Shown here: in pieces, positions 42,749 to 64,000 of the stretch
Layout: every line of letters begins with the position of its first letter
Position numbering within the stretch: position 1 is the first letter of the stretch
From: an uncultured Candidatus Saccharibacteria bacterium
Lineage (GTDB): Bacteria; Patescibacteriota; Minisyncoccia; Phycocordibacterales; UBA918
Direction of reading: 5' to 3'
Assembly (NCBI GenBank): GCA_964611205.1
Contig: CAZSZB010000002.1
Coordinates: 74,609-138,608 of the forward strand
Length of the DNA stretch: 64,000 bases
Translations under genes and position numbers: made by a program
The notes under the pieces: model-generated
The model's database searches: none
What the model saw: the letters and a program-made list of their open reading frames with translations, nothing else
What the model was told of the DNA's origin: nothing

Positions 42749-43363
42749 ATGAGTTCTTTAGAAGTTAAAAAAACAATTGAAAACGAAGACCAGATGGAGC
42801 CTTCTGTAAAGAACAAGAGTTTTGTTCTGGAGCTATCACAATTCATTATTCTAGCCATCTTGATAGTAGCTCCCATCAGAATGTTCGTAGCTCAACCATT
42901 CTTAGTCTCTGGTGCTTCTATGGAAAACACCTTTGATAATGGTGATTATCTGATAATAGACCAACTCACTTATCACTTTAATGACCCTAAGCGCGGTGAT
43001 GTCATTATTTTCCGCTACCCTAAAGACCCTTCCAAGTTCTTCATTAAACGCATTATAGGCATACCTGGAGACACTATCAATATCGAAGATAATGTAGTCA
43101 CACTAACCACAAGCACCGGAGCAAGTCAGATTCTAGACGAACCTTATGTCAAAGCCATGAACAATAATAATCACTACAATGTAACTCTCGACGAAGGCAA
43201 TTATTTTGTGATGGGAGACAATCGTGACCGTAGCTCAGATTCCAGAGTTTGGGGAGTCTTAGATAGAGAGAACATTATCGGTCGCACATTTTTACGACTC
43301 TTCCCTTTTGACCACATCTCTACCTTCCCCGGATCAGCACACATAAACTTATCAGATTCATAA
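42749..43363 (+). CDS. lepB: signal peptidase I
   Basis: An N-terminal TM, then SGASMENTF (the Ser nucleophile box), RGDVIIFRYP, KRIIGIPGD and GDNRDRSSDSR (box E). Confidence 0.85.
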   Translation: MSSLEVKKTIENEDQMEPSVKNKSFVLELSQFIILAILIVAPIRMFVAQPFLVSGASMENTFDNGDYLIIDQLTYHFNDPKRGDVIIFRYPKDPSKFFIKRIIGIPGDTINIEDNVVTLTTSTGASQILDEPYVKAMNNNNHYNVTLDEGNYFVMGDNRDRSSDSRVWGVLDRENIIGRTFLRLFPFDHISTFPGSAHINLSDS

Positions 43364-55665: not shown

Positions 55666-55770
55666 AGAGTTTTATCTTATTAAATAGTATACTTTTTAAA
55701 ACTAAAGCTAATCGAAATAAGTTGCTTCACCATCTCAAGTTAGAGACCAGGTCTCTAACTTTAAATAGAG

Positions 55771-55799
55771 TTGCTTAATTTGTATATTTGTTGCATAAT
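55771..55799 (+). promoter_or_regulatory. sigma70-like promoter for the RNase P RNA
   Basis: TTGCTT at 55771-55776, a 17-nt spacer, CATAAT at 55794-55799. Transcription would start about 7 nt downstream. Confidence 0.45.
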
Positions 55800-55802
55800 G
55801 TT

Positions 55803-56042
55803 GCTGGTCTGATAGAGACGATTGCGCTACCTTTTGGTAGTGAGGAAAGTCCGAACACAGGCATGATTTATCATGCAGACAGGTAGCGGGTAACCCCCGT
55901 CGTGAGTAATCACCGAGGTGCGAACAGAAACGGCCAATGCGAAAGCAAAGGACATCCATTTATGGATGAGGTCTTGGGTAACCAAGAAATGAAACGGCTA
56001 AATCCTTACCCCTGTGCAAGGCCGTGCCCAGCCGTACTTTTT
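55803..56042 (+). ncRNA. rnpB: RNase P RNA (bacterial type, unusually compact at about 240 nt)
   Basis: CR-I GAGGAAAGTCCGAACACAGGCA (P4 5' strand). GCGGGTAACCCCCGTCG (a GGUAAC loop as in E. coli P6/P7). GTGCGAACAGAAACGGCC (compare E. coli GUGCAACAGAGAGCAAACCGCC, P8/P9). CR-IV-like AATGAAACGGCTAAATCC (P4 3' strand). The 5' GCTGG can pair with the 3' CCAGC at 56026-56030 to form P1. The P10-P14 region appears strongly reduced. The boundaries are approximate. Confidence 0.6.
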
Positions 56043-56540
56043 GCATATACAAACGAAAACATCAAATTCACCTTGTGTGTTAGAGATAGATTCCATTATG
56101 GTATGCAAAAAGTACGGCTGGGAGAGCCGCTCGAGCTAGTTGGTAACAACTAGCCTAGATAAATAATCGTCATCGCTCTGCGAAACAGAATTCGGCTTAC
56201 TATATCAGTCCAACAAAATGACCCGACTCGCCTTACGGCGAGTCGGGTCATTTTATATCTCATTTATCACCTAAGTGATAAATAAAAAGTATTATTACAG
56301 AGATGTATTAATATCTTCTTCATCAGATACTTCTACAGTTCCCATATCATCTACCACTACTGGTTCCTCAGATGAAGTAGCCGGTGTCTCACCCATATCA
56401 ACTGAGCTCATCGGCATATCTGAAACCTCTTCCTTTTTCTTACCAAAAAGTCCGAAAAACATACTGCATATTATTATCCTATAAACGTTGTTATTGTATC
56501 ATATCTCCTCCAAGCAAAACTATAGTATAGTGATATTAAT

Positions 56541-58222: not shown

Positions 58223-58294
58223 GCGCGATTAGCTCAGTGGTAGAGCGCTCCGTTGACATCGGAGAGGTCGAAAGTTCAATTCTTTCATCGCGCA
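58223..58294 (+). tRNA. tRNA-Val (anticodon GAC)
   Basis: Acceptor GCGCGAT/ATCGCGC, D-arm TAGCTCAGTGGTAGAGCG, anticodon stem CTCCG/CGGAG, loop TTGACAT, T-arm GAAAG-TTCAATT-CTTTC. Confidence 0.85.
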
Positions 58295-58306
58295 CAAATC
58301 ATAAAT

Positions 58307-59170
58307 ATGGAACAACCACTTAAAGACATTGTTATTATCTACCACGCGGATTGTCGTGATGGTTTTGGGGCGGCTTATGCAGCTTGGAAAAAATTTGGCG
58401 ATAATGCTTCCTATATACCAAGCAGGGCGGGTGACGAAGAGCTCCCCGATGGCCTTACAAATAAAGAAATCTATATTGTTGACTATTCTTATAAAAAAGA
58501 AACATTGCAACAGCTTTTGGATACAAACAAATCCGTAGTTGTTATTGATCACCACCAAACAGCCCGAGAAGCAGTCGAGAGCTTTAGCCAAAACATTTTT
58601 GACAACGACCATTCAGGAGCCGTGCTAGCTTGGCAGTACTTCCACCCTGACACAACTATACCTCCGCTCCTTGAATATGTAGAAGACCATGATTTATGGC
58701 GCTTTGCCCTACCAGAAAACCGGGAGTTTAATGTCGCCCTAGGAGAGTACCCGATGACTTTTGAAAGCTGGGATAAGCTCATCGCAGATTTAAAGAACAC
58801 CGACAATCTTATCAATTTTATTGCCAAAGGTTCCCTCTTAGCCAAGTTTGAAGATAAGTTAGTCGCTCGACTTATGATGTACAAAGAACGAGTACTTTTT
58901 GAAGGATACGAAGTCTGGGCTATCAACGCTTCACGAATCTACCGTTCTATTCTCGGAAACCAGCTAGCTGAACTGAACTTAGCAGAAGAACAAGAACCGA
59001 TTGGTATAGTGTATTATCACGGCAATGGCGGGGTAAATATTTCGTTGCGCAGCATCGGAGAAACAGACGTAGCAGCCATCGCTGAGAAATACGGTGGTGG
59101 CGGACATAAGAACGCCGCCGGTATCGAGGTAGCGAATTTCTCAGAGCTCCCTTTTACCTTTCTCTCTTAA
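58307..59170 (+). CDS. nrnA: DHH/DHHA1 phosphoesterase (NrnA-like oligoribonuclease/pAp phosphatase)
   Basis: DHH motifs (IIYHADCRDGFGAA, VVIDHHQTA) and the DHHA1 GGGH motif (KYGGGGHKNAAG). The start was chosen at MEQPLKD. Confidence 0.75.
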   Translation: MEQPLKDIVIIYHADCRDGFGAAYAAWKKFGDNASYIPSRAGDEELPDGLTNKEIYIVDYSYKKETLQQLLDTNKSVVVIDHHQTAREAVESFSQNIFDNDHSGAVLAWQYFHPDTTIPPLLEYVEDHDLWRFALPENREFNVALGEYPMTFESWDKLIADLKNTDNLINFIAKGSLLAKFEDKLVARLMMYKERVLFEGYEVWAINASRIYRSILGNQLAELNLAEEQEPIGIVYYHGNGGVNISLRSIGETDVAAIAEKYGGGGHKNAAGIEVANFSELPFTFLS

Positions 59171-60688: not shown

Positions 60689-62170
60689 TTAATCCAAAAT
60701 CAGCAACAATAAAGAAGCAATTGCTATCCCGAAAAACGGCCACCAAACACACGGAAATCCGAAAAATAGTGAGGTGAGAGTGAATAACAGTGCCCAAGCA
60801 CCGAAATAGATATTCCTCGAGCGAGAATCCCAAAAAGTTTGGCTAATATAGTGAGCTCGATAATCATAAGCTGTCATAACTACCCAAGCAAAAAGGAATA
60901 CGTACCAAATATAGCCAATTATATTCAACCAATAAGATACCAGCAGAAGAACCGTATAGACAGCAGAGAAAATTAATTGCCGGTTGAAAAATGGTCTAAA
61001 TTCAGAATGTTCGCGATTCAGACGATCAGCCAATACACTCCACGTCAGAGAAATAAATATTAAAATCAGTAGCCATATCAGAGTACACACACCCGTCTCT
61101 GAGAGCGGAGAATCATCCAACCAGTCAGTTATTCCTTTAACCATACCGTCTACTTTACCTTCATCAGTAGTCTCGGTGTCGGTATTTGTTGCTGCTCCTA
61201 ACACCGCTCCAGCCGGCAAGGTAGAACCAAAACCATCTCCACTACCTGCGAAGAAATTTGTACTAGCTCCCGCCACTGCACCTCCTGGAATAATAAAACG
61301 CAAAGCTTTACCAACACTAAAATCATCATCAGTATCTTCCCTGCTAGCTGGTCGACATTCATAAGTACCAGACTCTCCCACCGTGACTATCACTATATGT
61401 TCTTCACTATCATTCTCCCGCTCAGCTACAGCAAACTCATAACCAAAGTATGGTTCGGTTGGATTAAGGTCAAAAGGTCCGTTGGCAAGATTTCCACAAA
61501 CCAAATAGGTGGTAGCTCCTCTATTAGTCTGCCAAGCAATAGTAGCACTGCTGTCTAAAGGATTTACCGCTACAACTGTTTCGTTAAACAGTCTAAAATT
61601 ACTTGTTCCGCCACCTCCTGTACCACCGCCACCACCGCCTGGAGGTGTTGTAATCGTCGTGGTAGAGGTATCTCCATCATCACAAAGTACGCTACCGCCA
61701 GAAAAACCAACACACAAACCGAAGCCCATAGTTTTAACCTGATAACTATTATCTGTGGCAGTATCCAGAGAAGCCGTGAAATTATAAGTGCGCGACTGTC
61801 CAGCTGATAGAGTTCCTAAAGGAATAGCTGGCCCAGAAAATAAGCTAGCAAAATAATCGTTGTAGTAATTACTGGTCGGACCATCGACTTCTAAACGCAT
61901 AACAGCTGCTAAACCATCGGAGTATTCGTCTTTAGTATCAAAGTAAACAGACTCATTATTTGGACCATTGTTAACGACAGTAACGGTACGTGAGGTACTG
62001 AGACCAGGCGCAACATTTACATCATAAAAAAGAGGGTCGTTTTGGAAACTCACATTCAATCCAGCCGCGTTAGCGATGGTTGTGAGACCAAAAAGTAATA
62101 AGAATAAAGTGCTGTAGATAACTATCTTTGGTTGTAGGAGAATCTTTATCATAATCTTATTCTGTCTCAT
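60689..62170 (-). CDS. cell-surface protein with a TasA/camelysin-like N-terminal domain, Gly/Thr linker and a C-terminal multi-TM anchor
   Basis: A signal peptide, then NVSFQNDPLFYDVNVAPGLSTSRTVTVVNNGPNNESVYF (camelysin-like pattern NL.PG....f.v.N.G). A GGGGGTGGGG linker. The last ~130 aa form 3-4 TM helices rich in W/F/Y. Confidence 0.5.
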   Translation of the reverse strand: MRQNKIMIKILLQPKIVIYSTLFLLLFGLTTIANAAGLNVSFQNDPLFYDVNVAPGLSTSRTVTVVNNGPNNESVYFDTKDEYSDGLAAVMRLEVDGPTSNYYNDYFASLFSGPAIPLGTLSAGQSRTYNFTASLDTATDNSYQVKTMGFGLCVGFSGGSVLCDDGDTSTTTITTPPGGGGGGTGGGGTSNFRLFNETVVAVNPLDSSATIAWQTNRGATTYLVCGNLANGPFDLNPTEPYFGYEFAVAERENDSEEHIVIVTVGESGTYECRPASREDTDDDFSVGKALRFIIPGGAVAGASTNFFAGSGDGFGSTLPAGAVLGAATNTDTETTDEGKVDGMVKGITDWLDDSPLSETGVCTLIWLLILIFISLTWSVLADRLNREHSEFRPFFNRQLIFSAVYTVLLLVSYWLNIIGYIWYVFLFAWVVMTAYDYRAHYISQTFWDSRSRNIYFGAWALLFTLTSLFFGFPCVWWPFFGIAIASLLLLILD

Positions 62171-63704
62171 TATTATCTTCCTTAATCACACCCTCTTCCG
62201 GCTTAATTTCTGGAGTTGAGACAGGTACTTTTTCAGCTGGTGGTTTTGTTTCAGCAGCAGCAGTTTCTGAAGGATTACTTTCCGTGGAAGAACCGTCATC
62301 TTTGTCGGTATTTTTATCAGAATTAGATGAACCTTCAGGACTGACATCTCCATCATTAGTTTTTTCATCTTTAAAGACCGGGTCGGTGGTGGTGGAAATG
62401 TCACCATTATCTTTGATATCTTCGGCAGAATCATTGATGATGTCGTCGGTTGTAGTGGCAGTAGTTGTAGCTACTGCGGTAGAAGGCTGTGTAGTCGTCG
62501 CTGTAGTTGAAGTACCAGTATCACTCGCCTTCTTGGTAGATGTAGCGGTAGAAGTGCCGTTATCAGCCTCCAAGAACTTAAATTTCGGCTCTCCAGCCTC
62601 ACCTAGATGTTCAACCTCTCTTCCTAACACAGCGTCGATATCAGCCTGACTCCAGCCTGCAGTCTCCAACTCCTCACGAGTAGCGGTATTAGGTGTGCCA
62701 GGGGTTGGAACCGGATCTACCCACACCGAACCATCCGGGATACGAGCAATAGATTTGCCTTTTGGAGTTAATGTATAGGTATAAGAATCAAGCAAAGTAC
62801 TAGATGTGTTATAGAGAGTTACCGTATCGCCACTATCATTTAGCCGACTGCTCACACAAAATTCTATAAGCAAACGGCCACCGGCTGGTATATTAGTACT
62901 AGCGGCGTTATACGGTCGGGCAAAGCCAATTTTTGAGTTAGATTGGCAGGTGTTTGATAGTGAAATTATATGTAGTTGCTCACTACTACTACCTGCAGTC
63001 TCTCCAATACTCCACCCTTCAACATCTATCGAAGTCTCCGTTCCGTTATACAATTCGACCCATTCTCTTTCCAGAGGAGCGGATAAGCTATTATCAGGGT
63101 TAGGGTAAATCTCATTTAACACCACGTTGCTAGTAGTTTGGGGACCAACAGCTTCCGTTGCTGTCACAGTCATACTGAAAGTTGTAGTAGCCGTAAAACC
63201 ACCTGACACATCATCACTAAACTCATTCTGCCAAGCTGTTACATTCACCACAAAATCACAGGTTTCATTTTGCACCGCTGAAAAAGAAGAAGTGGCGTTA
63301 ATCGCAACCGACCAAGTACCGCCCGTGGTCGAAGTAGCCAAAAGTGAGTTAGCGAAACCGTCGTAGACTACCGTTCCTTTGGTAACCGTCATAGCTAAAT
63401 TATTCCAAAAACCAGCTTTACAATTGGTTGGTACAGCTTCTATTCGATACTGCTCGTTCACTGAGCCAGTGTTGGTTGTATTGAAAGTAAAATTATCACC
63501 GAATGAAGAAGAAATAGCCAAGTTGGACTTATCTGGATTAGCAGTAATAGACAAAGTACCAGCTGAGAAGTTATTCGTCGTCGCTTCGGCTGGGGCGGTG
63601 AAGTAAGCCGCGGCTGGAACAAAACCAACACCAAAGAAAAACATCAAGAAAGCTATCATCATAGCCATTTTTCCTACCCTAATTTGTTGGTTTATTTTAT
63701 TCAT
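62157..63704 (-). CDS. secreted TasA/camelysin-like (SipW-cognate signal) protein fused to a lamin-tail domain and a Thr/Ser/Asp-rich tail
   Basis: A signal peptide followed by TTNNFSAGTLSITANPD (compare TasA ATFASGTLDLSA). LTD: VVLNEIYPNPDNS...EWVELYNGTETSIDVEGWSI...DTVTLYNTSSTLLDSYTY. The C-terminal ~150 aa is low-complexity T/S/D/E/K. Confidence 0.6.
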   Translation of the reverse strand: MNKINQQIRVGKMAMMIAFLMFFFGVGFVPAAAYFTAPAEATTNNFSAGTLSITANPDKSNLAISSSFGDNFTFNTTNTGSVNEQYRIEAVPTNCKAGFWNNLAMTVTKGTVVYDGFANSLLATSTTGGTWSVAINATSSFSAVQNETCDFVVNVTAWQNEFSDDVSGGFTATTTFSMTVTATEAVGPQTTSNVVLNEIYPNPDNSLSAPLEREWVELYNGTETSIDVEGWSIGETAGSSSEQLHIISLSNTCQSNSKIGFARPYNAASTNIPAGGRLLIEFCVSSRLNDSGDTVTLYNTSSTLLDSYTYTLTPKGKSIARIPDGSVWVDPVPTPGTPNTATREELETAGWSQADIDAVLGREVEHLGEAGEPKFKFLEADNGTSTATSTKKASDTGTSTTATTTQPSTAVATTTATTTDDIINDSAEDIKDNGDISTTTDPVFKDEKTNDGDVSPEGSSNSDKNTDKDDGSSTESNPSETAAAETKPPAEKVPVSTPEIKPEEGVIKEDNNETE

Positions 63705-64000
63705 ACATCATCTGCGATGTTTGTTTCCTCCTCGATTGCTATTTGTTGTCTGCGCAACTCAGCCCTGATTTTTCCGATTTGTTCATGAATAATCAAAACT
63801 GCCGGAATACCAATCAAAAGCAAAAATCCGATTGGTTGGCGAAAAAAACTTAGTACGTAACCTAGATATGGTAGATGTCCCCACATTTTGCCAGAAATTT
63901 CAGCTGGGAAAACTGGGTTTGTGTCGACAGCATCGTTAGCGTCACCTTGAGTGAGAAAAACCTCTTTCCCTTCTTCGATTCTCTCCTCGACAATGCGGTG
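63701..64000 (-). CDS. sipW: SipW-type (archaeal/eukaryotic-like) signal peptidase I, C-terminal part; the gene continues beyond the right edge
   Basis: ...FLTQGDANDAVDTNPVFPAEISGKMWGHLPYLGYVLSFFRQPIGFLLLIGIPAVLII matches the SipW C-terminus (GDNN...GKV..IPYLGYV plus a C-terminal TM). It is in frame back to position 64000. Confidence 0.6.
   Translation of the reverse strand, partial: HRIVEERIEEGKEVFLTQGDANDAVDTNPVFPAEISGKMWGHLPYLGYVLSFFRQPIGFLLLIGIPAVLIIHEQIGKIRAELRRQQIAIEEETNIADDV

Follow-up and report, generated by a model that had tools for sequence, protein, structure and literature searches.

A SipW/TasA-type gene cassette with lamin-tail, beta-helix and membrane-anchored TasA-like proteins in uncultured Patescibacteria

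Results

Gene content and extent of the cassette

A candidate surface-appendage cassette was located at the end of a 64,000-nt stretch of contig CAZSZB010000002.1 (assembly GCA_964611205.1) from an uncultured Patescibacteria bacterium, and this whole stretch is referred to below as the window. According to the ORF listing, the 60689–64000 region contains three co-oriented open reading frames (ORFs) on the minus strand: a 3′-terminal part of a sipW-type signal peptidase gene, a gene for a TasA-like protein with a lamin-tail domain (LTD; protein P2) and a gene for a TasA-like protein with a C-terminal membrane anchor (P3). The contig carrying the locus (ENA ERZ27247346 k141_743972, 165,888 bp; L001), whose plus strand corresponds to the minus strand of the window, completes the sipW frame and places a fourth gene, P1, immediately upstream of it (Table 1). 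The four genes make up a conserved cassette of Patescibacteria (Paceibacteria) in the order P1–sipW–P2–P3, and its 3′ three-quarters lie in the window. A preliminary description of the window had proposed an operon of three minus-strand genes with overlapping boundaries; the three genes and their arrangement were confirmed, but the cassette proved to be larger, since P1 lies beyond the window end.

The sipW and P2 genes overlap by 4 nt (ATGA). If P3 starts with the ATG at 62170, which has an AAGGAA Shine–Dalgarno box 7 nt on its 5′ side, it overlaps P2 by 14 nt, while the start chosen in the gene call of the contig (ATG at 62152) results in a 487-aa protein and a 4-nt gap. These ORFs are not chance ones, because homologues of each gene were found at E values from 1e-40 to 1e-129, and 37 loci keep the gene order (see below). 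The cassette is flanked on L001 by a divergent class-I aminoacyl-tRNA synthetase gene and a convergent tsaD gene.

A promoter scan around the cassette detected promoter-like sites at chance level only. Between the aminoacyl-tRNA synthetase gene and P1, approximately 2 kb past position 64000, there is a hairpin with a perfect 17-bp stem and T/A-rich flanks (L001:7647–7685), which scores as a bidirectional terminator, yet sits where the promoter would be expected. In the 76-nt gap between P1 and sipW, a consensus scan revealed a small hairpin rich in GC, with a T-rich tract behind it (L001:9441–9458); it could act as a partial terminator raising the abundance of P1 over that of the downstream genes.

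Table 1. Positions of the genes and protein segments discussed in the text (window coordinates, or those of contig L001 where marked)
Feature	Position	Strand	Remarks
P1	L001:7772–9388	co-oriented, immediately upstream of sipW	538 aa, outside the window
sipW, full	L001:9465–10004	window minus-strand sense	179 aa; extends ~240 nt past the window end
sipW, 3′ end	63701–64000	−	99 codons + stop, frame runs off the window
P2	62157–63704	−	515 aa (ORF listing)
P2 signal peptide, aa 1–33	63606–63704	−	predicted cleavage PAAA↓YF, TasA-like aromatics at P1′ and P2′
P2 N-terminal extension, aa 34–52	63549–63605	−	YFTAPAEATTNNFSAGTLS; matches TasA donor strand + linker (TasA residues 28–47)
P2 TasA/camelysin-like jellyroll, aa 34–185	63150–63605	−	hhalign, family PF12389 matches, model
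P2 lamin-tail domain, aa 186–340	62685–63149	−	PF00932, beta-sandwich model, pLDDT 83–95
P2 C-terminal part, aa 341–515 + stop	62157–62684	−	helical hairpin aa 343–367, disordered tail
P3	60689–62170	−	493 aa (ORF listing)
P3 signal peptide, aa 1–35	62066–62170	−	ordinary AXA type, predicted ANA↓AG directly before the first beta-strand
P3 TasA-like jellyroll, aa 36–163	61682–62065	−	hhalign; model pLDDT ~90; no donor-strand extension
P3 Thr/Pro/poly-Gly linker, aa 164–189	61604–61681	−	pLDDT ~31; G-run conserved across the family
P3 FN3-like domain, aa 190–295	61286–61603	−	beta-sandwich model (194–294), pLDDT ~80
P3 linker, aa 296–356, with P.G[SA]VLG, and transmembrane bundle, aa 357–493 + stop	60689–61285	−	
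LepB-type signal peptidase I	42749–43363	+	TIGR02227 152.9 bits (cutoff 47)

The signal peptidase

The frame running off the window had been taken for a SipW-type signal peptidase, and the completed gene bore this out: the full protein scored 103 bits against TIGR02228 (archaeal-type signal peptidase I; cutoff 51.85), and the fragment within the window, whose translation includes ...GKMWGHLPYLGYV... and ...TQGDANDAVDTNPVFPAEISGKMWGHLPYLGYVLSFFRQPIGFLLLIGIPAVLI..., already reached 46.5 bits (E 3.4e-12) against this model and an E value of 9.8e-15 against NF046067. Nevertheless, the protein is not the Bacillus SipW equivalog, as the full sequence scored 108.3 bits against NF046067 (cutoff 190), so that the two enzymes are of one type without matching at the orthologue level. 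The closest solved relatives are the catalytic subunits of the human endoplasmic reticulum (ER) signal peptidase, SEC11A (7p2p_A, E 2.6e-9) and SEC11C (E 4.8e-8). The SGSMEP, TTHRIV and QGDANDAVD segments align to the motifs of SEC11A (7p2p_A), and the aligned Ser, His and Asp residues are presumably the catalytic ones. The enzyme has these SGSMxP, HR and GDxN..D-type motifs instead of the Ser/Lys dyad of the LepB-type enzymes, and judged by its sequence the cassette sipW encodes an archaeal/ER-type signal peptidase I. Since the genome also encodes a housekeeping LepB-type signal peptidase I, which lies in the window and carries the SGASM, KRIIG and GDNRDRSSDSR boxes, SipW is a second, dedicated peptidase as in Bacillus. 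An aromatic residue at position P2′ makes TasA a poor substrate of LepB and a substrate of SipW (PMC10269814).

P2, a TasA-like protein with a lamin-tail domain

The LTD of P2 was detected by PF00932 with 53.4 bits (gathering cutoff 34.3; residues 189–311). The N-terminal domain in front of it was harder to assign, as P2 alone gave only 13.3 bits (E 0.075) with PF12389 (gathering cutoff 22.5) and no match with the SipW-cognate model TIGR04088 even at E values up to 10. Because the direct PF12389 and TIGR04088 searches were null or below threshold, the TasA homology of both P2 and P3 was followed through family profiles. The 171 homologues of P2 come nearly all from Patescibacteria (Kaiserbacteria, Nomurabacteria, Paceibacterota) and, where named, are called "lamin tail domain-containing protein"; many distant ones contain both PF12389 and PF00932. 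In a 58-member alignment of the family, PF00932 was found in all 58 sequences and PF12389 matched 19 of them at E <0.01 (best 1.5e-10). The N-terminal domain of P2 was aligned over its whole length with 24 small TasA-like proteins encoded in related cassettes (hhalign 97.7%, E 1.8e-12, 137 columns); three of these 24, all from locus L005, were scanned and pass both PF12389 and TIGR04088. When the P2 family profile was compared with PDB sequences, the top two matches were the TasA fibre 8AUR and the TasA monomer 5OF1, with E values of only 0.16–0.18 but aligned to residues 2–54, exactly from the N-terminus of mature TasA. On the strength of these profile comparisons, the N-terminal domain of P2 is assigned as a TasA/camelysin-type jellyroll fused to an LTD, in agreement with the preliminary description, which had named both domains.

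P2 carries the motif NNFSAGTLSITAN, and the consensus of the family N-terminus is TxAYFxDxxxSxxNxFxAGxLD (58-member alignment). The donor-strand-type extension is YFTAPAEATTNNF, which is equivalent to residues 28–38 of TasA with the flanking aromatics. The SipW-cognate N-terminus proposed earlier is present in P2 as a motif, but the TIGR04088 search, named in the preliminary description as a check, returned neither P2 nor P3. In the AlphaFold2 (AF2) model of the monomer the extension is a coil at residues 36–52, with predicted local distance difference test (pLDDT) values of 57–76. The model as a whole has a pLDDT of 75 and exceeds 90 at residues 50–360, where it forms two beta-sandwich domains. 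Two helices follow (343–348 and 353–367), their motif being conserved in loci L002–L005, and then the long Thr/Ser/acidic tail noticed before, i.e. approximately 150 Ser/Thr/Asp/Glu-rich residues predicted to be disordered (pLDDT <50 from residue 368). Neither a transmembrane (TM) segment nor a sorting signal was found in the C-terminal part. Cys149 (63258–63260) does not vary among the 58 family members, and Cys is also the majority residue near position 95 (63420–63422), which points to a conserved disulfide bond within the TasA-like domain.

Structure prediction had been proposed as a check of the TasA-like domains, and it gave confident beta-sandwich models for P2 and P3 alike. Whole-chain Foldseek searches of the PDB listed FimC/PapD chaperones and antibodies at the top for P2, and WxLIP, RbmA and transglutaminases for full-length P3, with TM-scores of 0.12–0.20 and root-mean-square deviations of 12–22 Å. 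We regard these matches as those of a generic tandem beta-sandwich, which speak neither for nor against TasA.

P1, the upstream TasA-type protein

The N-terminus of P1 (GTGAFFSDTAQATGNVFTAGTLDL; MLAVGIIMFVGAMAVYGTGAFFSDTAQATGNVFTAGTLDL) is of the canonical SipW-cognate type, with the donor-strand-type extension FFSDTAQATGNVF. P1 passes PF12389 (23.8 bits, gathering cutoff 22.5) and stays just under the cutoff of TIGR04088 (17.7 bits, cutoff 19), which its orthologues in L003 and L004 pass (20.9 and 19.3 bits, respectively). Its N-terminal part aligned with the 24 small TasA-like proteins (hhalign 99%, E 2.5e-18), and so did its last ~70 residues (...QLDGPTTGNNFQ...LTFTLNQ; 77.7%, E 1.9e-5). 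In the L004 orthologue a right-handed beta-helix was recognised (PF13229, 60 bits). Taken together, the alignments indicate that P1 would be a TasA jellyroll split in two by a beta-helix insert. A hidden Markov model (HMM) search of PDB sequences with P1 alone returned nothing meaningful.

P3, a membrane-anchored TasA-like protein without a donor strand

Described earlier as camelysin-like, the N-terminal domain of P3 was found homologous to this fold by hhalign, both with the P2 family (94%, E 1.4e-7, for a profile of 16 sequences; 95.5%, E 1.4e-8, for one of 92) and with the small TasA-like proteins of the cassettes (95.9%, E 5e-9, 113 columns). Residues 35–154 of P3 align to residues 48–155 of the TasA-like part of P2, and the alignment with the TasA-like proteins spans from PLF..PGD through the terminal GN.YQ...FDL strands. 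The mature N-terminus of P3, AGLNVSF, aligns with AGTLSI of P2, hence P3 has no equivalent of TasA residues 28–38. Neither a SipW-cognate nor a donor-strand motif was found in P3, and TIGR04088 gave no match even at E values up to 10. In its strict form, the N.F.[AS]G motif is present in four of 158 P3-family members versus 17 of the 24 small TasA-like proteins. PF12389 did not match P3 itself and matched three of 18 family members weakly, and no NCBIfam model, including that of TapA (TIGR04087), was found in P3. Weak DUF11 matches below threshold were seen in P3 and in nine of 18 relatives (best E 1.5e-4); DUF11 was not adopted, being a weak alternative name for the same kind of beta-sandwich.

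The poly-Gly linker and the C-terminal TM anchor of the preliminary description were both found, the latter with four to five helices, but a middle domain resembling fibronectin type III (FN3) had been missed. The P3 family profile gave weak FN3 matches to titin and neogenin among PDB sequences (E 3.6e-4 and 0.01), and PF16656 is present in P3 relatives; the domain is absent from the orthologues in L003 (Kaiserbacteria) and L004 (Nomurabacteria). Matches of the profile to Piezo and to G protein-coupled receptors were rejected as spurious, arising from the composition of the acidic linker and the TM region. The AF2 model has an overall pLDDT of 74, with a disordered linker between the FN3-like domain and the TM helices. 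The anchor, predicted by the model and hydropathy at about residues 345–492, consists in the model of helices 358–384, 389–414, 418–443, 449–469 and 477–492 (pLDDT 84–95). Nearly all P3-family members examined have a membrane anchor at the C-terminus, usually a single TM helix with a Lys/Arg tail, and the form with 3–5 TM helices is clade-specific. Within aa 296–493 (61103–61285 and 60692–61102), the stretch joining the FN3-like domain to the membrane region contains the conserved motif P.G[SA]VLG, and Cys residues are conserved at the TM boundaries (C..WLL and FG.PC.WWP in the clade of the window, YCP.P in others). In an exhaustive HMM search, 3,227 representatives of the family (clusters at 50% identity) were collected at E ≤1e-3, a number that falls to 498 at E ≤1e-30, and neither Pfam nor another curated family matched it above threshold.

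Conservation of the cassette in related genomes

The species of the window is not among the GTDB representatives, where the best P2 match was 34% identical. Synteny was examined in 80 loci from GTDB species genomes, collected by a scan with the P2 alignment, and the HMMs of the four components were run on all 84 loci. The P1–sipW–P2–P3 order is identical in three close relatives, namely L002, L003 (Kaiserbacteria) and L004 (Nomurabacteria). In 37 of the 84 loci sipW lies directly upstream of the LTD gene in the same direction; the LTD ORF contains a TasA-like N-terminal domain in 29 of these, and 31 have a P3-type ORF downstream, P3 being the last cassette gene in the loci examined. In most of the 37, sipW is also preceded by one to three TasA-type genes, and in L005 three such genes pass PF12389 (24–29 bits) and TIGR04088 (26–28 bits). 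Conversely, sipW is absent from all 47 loci whose LTD gene lacks a TasA-like domain, which belong to Chloroflexota, archaea, other Patescibacteria and others. The same arrangement was recovered from the other direction: starting from diverse P3 relatives, the M73–sipW–LTD–P3 order was seen in all three informative contigs, the fourth being too short.

Further features were seen at some of the loci. A TasA-type gene upstream of sipW in L005 (2951–4240) and L086 (2597–3886) has a DUF642/choice-of-anchor C insert after the donor-strand region; with the beta-helix of P1 and the LTD of P2, this means that passenger domains have been taken up by the jellyroll repeatedly. Immediately in front of the cassette, L003 (2099–3627) and L004 (2217–3742) encode an extracytoplasmic function (ECF) sigma factor and a 314–319-aa multi-TM protein, a possible anti-sigma factor, and directly downstream a CAP-domain membrane protein (L003:8638–9666, L004:8638–9696). 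The locus of the window lacks all of these neighbours. In L011, L019, L023 and L030, the Patescibacteria-type cassette occurs in metagenome-assembled genomes labelled as uncultured Gammaproteobacteria, Bdellovibrionales or Pseudomonadales; these labels are probably wrong, or the bins contaminated.

Other features of the window

Two RNA genes were recognised elsewhere on the plus strand of the window. A bacterial RNase P class A RNA (RF00010, 121 bits, gathering cutoff 100) occupies 55805–56216, which accounts for the overlapping low-quality ORFs at 55735–56484. A tRNA gene at 58223–58294 (72.7 bits) overlaps the TTG start of a 305-aa DHH/DHHA1 ORF (58253–59170), whose real start codon probably lies past the tRNA, as the gene call of the contig gives a 287-aa protein.

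Discussion

Considering the gene content and the conserved synteny, it seems fairly probable that the cassette builds a cell-anchored TasA-type surface filament, or a short polymer, by donor-strand complementation, with P3 as its base. In TasA fibres, residues 28–38 of one subunit are exchanged as a donor strand, with F29, I32 and F39 making hydrophobic contacts, residues 48–61 self-complement the monomer, and the deletion of residues 28–38 abolishes the fibres (PMC9674648). The "amyloid-like" fibres invoked in the preliminary description are thus an outdated notion, as TasA fibres are donor-strand-exchange polymers. The first strand is probably donated to TasA by TapA (PMC9674648; PMC10151520). 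For operons with several TasA/BsaA paralogues, heteropolymers have been proposed, and the oligomers of Clostridium perfringens BsaA are membrane-anchored (PMC11580942).

Along these lines, Sec would export P1 and P2, and SipW would cut them before the aromatic pair (at GTGA↓FF in P1 and PAAA↓YF in P2), setting free an N-terminal extension that corresponds to the donor strand of TasA. The freed strand of P1 or P2 would then enter the jellyroll of a neighbouring subunit. Because P3 has the same jellyroll, an AXA signal peptide and an anchor but no donor strand, it could only accept a strand and would be the membrane-fixed terminus tethering the polymer. The beta-helix of P1 and the LTD and acidic tail of P2 may be displayed along the polymer or at its end as binding or enzymatic modules. 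The gene content, the domain homologies, the N-terminal motifs present or absent and the synteny are what the sequences show; SipW cleavage, polymerisation and strand exchange, as well as the length of the polymer, the order of its subunits and its adhesive role, are what we infer from them.

Several points weigh against this proposal. P2 and P3, taken alone, are below the curated thresholds of PF12389 and TIGR04088. The weak DUF11 matches of the P3 N-terminal domain leave room for an unrelated beta-sandwich. The bulky passenger domains of P1 and P2 might sterically limit the length of the polymer. Moreover, TapA of Bacillus donates a strand while P3 would accept one, thus the proposed polarity of anchoring is without experimental precedent.

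The steric argument leads to a related explanation, by which the products form a short hetero-oligomeric spike or patch, where the P3 base in the membrane captures a single P2 and/or P1 by strand complementation; its task would be to display the LTD and the beta-helix and not to build a fibre. It would agree with the presence of exactly one acceptor-only anchored protein per cassette, and the large passenger domains of P1 and P2 could hinder homopolymerisation. However, the donor strand and the acceptor jellyroll are retained together in P1 as well as in P2, which is what chain growth requires, and most of the related cassettes add one to three small, passenger-free TasA-like genes as typical of major subunits; we therefore regard a spike as unlikely, if still the most serious competitor of the anchored filament. 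Alternatively, each protein may act on its own after secretion or at the surface, with nothing in common but the specialised SipW-dependent export signal and no strand exchange: P1 would be a secreted polysaccharide-active beta-helix enzyme, P2 a secreted LTD binder, e.g. of extracellular DNA or glycans, and P3 an unrelated membrane protein. SipW-cognate signals (TIGR04088) are indeed found on diverse proteins, the orthologues of P1 have Beta_helix/NosD-like repeats, and P3 needs no SipW by its sequence. On the other hand, P1, P2 and P3 have the whole jellyroll in common, beyond the signal, P3 keeps strict synteny with the cassette whichever way the search was run, and the family-wide loss of the donor-strand segment in the anchored member alone is hard to explain without strand exchange, so this explanation appears improbable.

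The family name in Pfam suggests still another function, namely that of camelysin-type (Peptidase_M73) metalloproteases with host or environmental proteins as substrates, and PF12389 matches do occur in P1 and in members of the P2 family. Yet the peptidase assignment of CalY is regarded as a likely misidentification (PMC11580942), TasA and BsaA are structural fibre proteins (PMC9674648), and no HExxH motif was seen on reading the P1, P2 and P3 sequences. The protease explanation was rejected on these three grounds, and we give it hardly any credence.

The Patescibacteria, or candidate phyla radiation, are mostly uncultured organisms with tiny genomes, and to our knowledge little is known of their attachment molecules beyond type IV pili. 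The cultivated ones live attached to host cells (PMC10633639; PMC11665869). The SipW/TasA-type cassette is a concrete and testable candidate for a second surface appendage of these bacteria. P3, a natural "donor-strand-deleted" paralogue on a membrane anchor, offers a simple hypothesis of how TasA-type fibres may be tethered; as for BsaA of C. perfringens, the mechanism of membrane anchoring is not identified in the accessible part of PMC11580942. The tolerance of the jellyroll for large inserted or appended passenger domains is also relevant to the engineering of display scaffolds. The P3 family comprises thousands of sequences currently without annotation. Tentatively, and with more doubt than for the filament itself, it might be a new class of membrane-embedded, acceptor-only TasA-fold anchors, possibly nucleators, of heteropolymeric donor-strand pili in Patescibacteria. 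If so, LTD, beta-helix or DUF642 modules would decorate the pili, the ultra-small episymbiotic bacteria would have a second, non-type-IV attachment organelle, and the multi-TM, Cys-containing C-terminus could be more than an anchor, e.g. an assembly platform or a signalling module.

Literature searches brought up no account of the cassette, of TasA proteins fused to an LTD or of the P3 family, but Patescibacteria have already been listed among the phyla with PF12389 homologues (PMC9245690). The closest parallel is the tapA–sipW–tasA operon of B. subtilis. Both systems encode a dedicated ER/archaeal-type signal peptidase among its substrates, which share the jellyroll fold and an N-terminus of the A↓xF...N.F.AGTLD type, in both genomes a housekeeping LepB-type peptidase is also present, and both are multi-protein systems with one accessory protein implicated in attachment. 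In contrast to B. subtilis, the cassette, whose host belongs to the Patescibacteria, has no TapA homologue and its SipW scores below the cutoff of the Bacillus equivalog model NF046067; an LTD is appended to its subunits or a beta-helix inserted in them. With regard to TapA, P3 could be no more than a functional analogue, since TapA is a wall-associated donor with an N-terminal strand of the AFHDI type, whereas P3 is a membrane-anchored protein of the TasA fold that lacks the donor strand.

The sipW–bsaA–bsaB–bsaC operon of C. perfringens resembles the cassette in combining SipW with several remote TasA paralogues; the report on it (PMC11580942) proposes donor-strand exchange and suggests heteropolymers, as we do for the cassette, describes oligomers that are membrane-associated and not peptidoglycan-linked, and mentions an Asn-Glu-Lys isopeptide "lock" in BsaA. 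Unlike the bsa operon, the cassette has neither a vWA protein nor a link to type IV pili, but it has an explicit membrane-anchored protein of the TasA fold. In the AbpA/AbpB bundling pili of Pyrobaculum calidifontis a TasA-fold pilin is likewise polymerised by donor strands, and a larger protein encoded beside the pilin, AbpB, is proposed to start the assembly and to bear distal beta-domains (PMC9245690). The archaeal locus lacks a dedicated signal peptidase as well as an LTD and a membrane-anchored acceptor, and AbpB is proposed to donate a strand while P3 would accept one (PMC9245690). The chaperone–usher (type 1/P) pili are an analogy and not a case of homology: there, too, N-terminal extensions complete the fold of the neighbour and a single extension-less subunit (FimH) defines one end, but the proteins are unrelated, and here there is neither a chaperone nor an usher, nor an outer membrane. 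The extension-less subunit also stands at opposite ends, i.e. FimH at the tip and P3 presumably at the membrane. By analogy, the cassette would work like the SipW/TasA systems of Bacillus and Clostridium, to which it would add an anchored paralogue without a donor strand and subunits with passenger domains.

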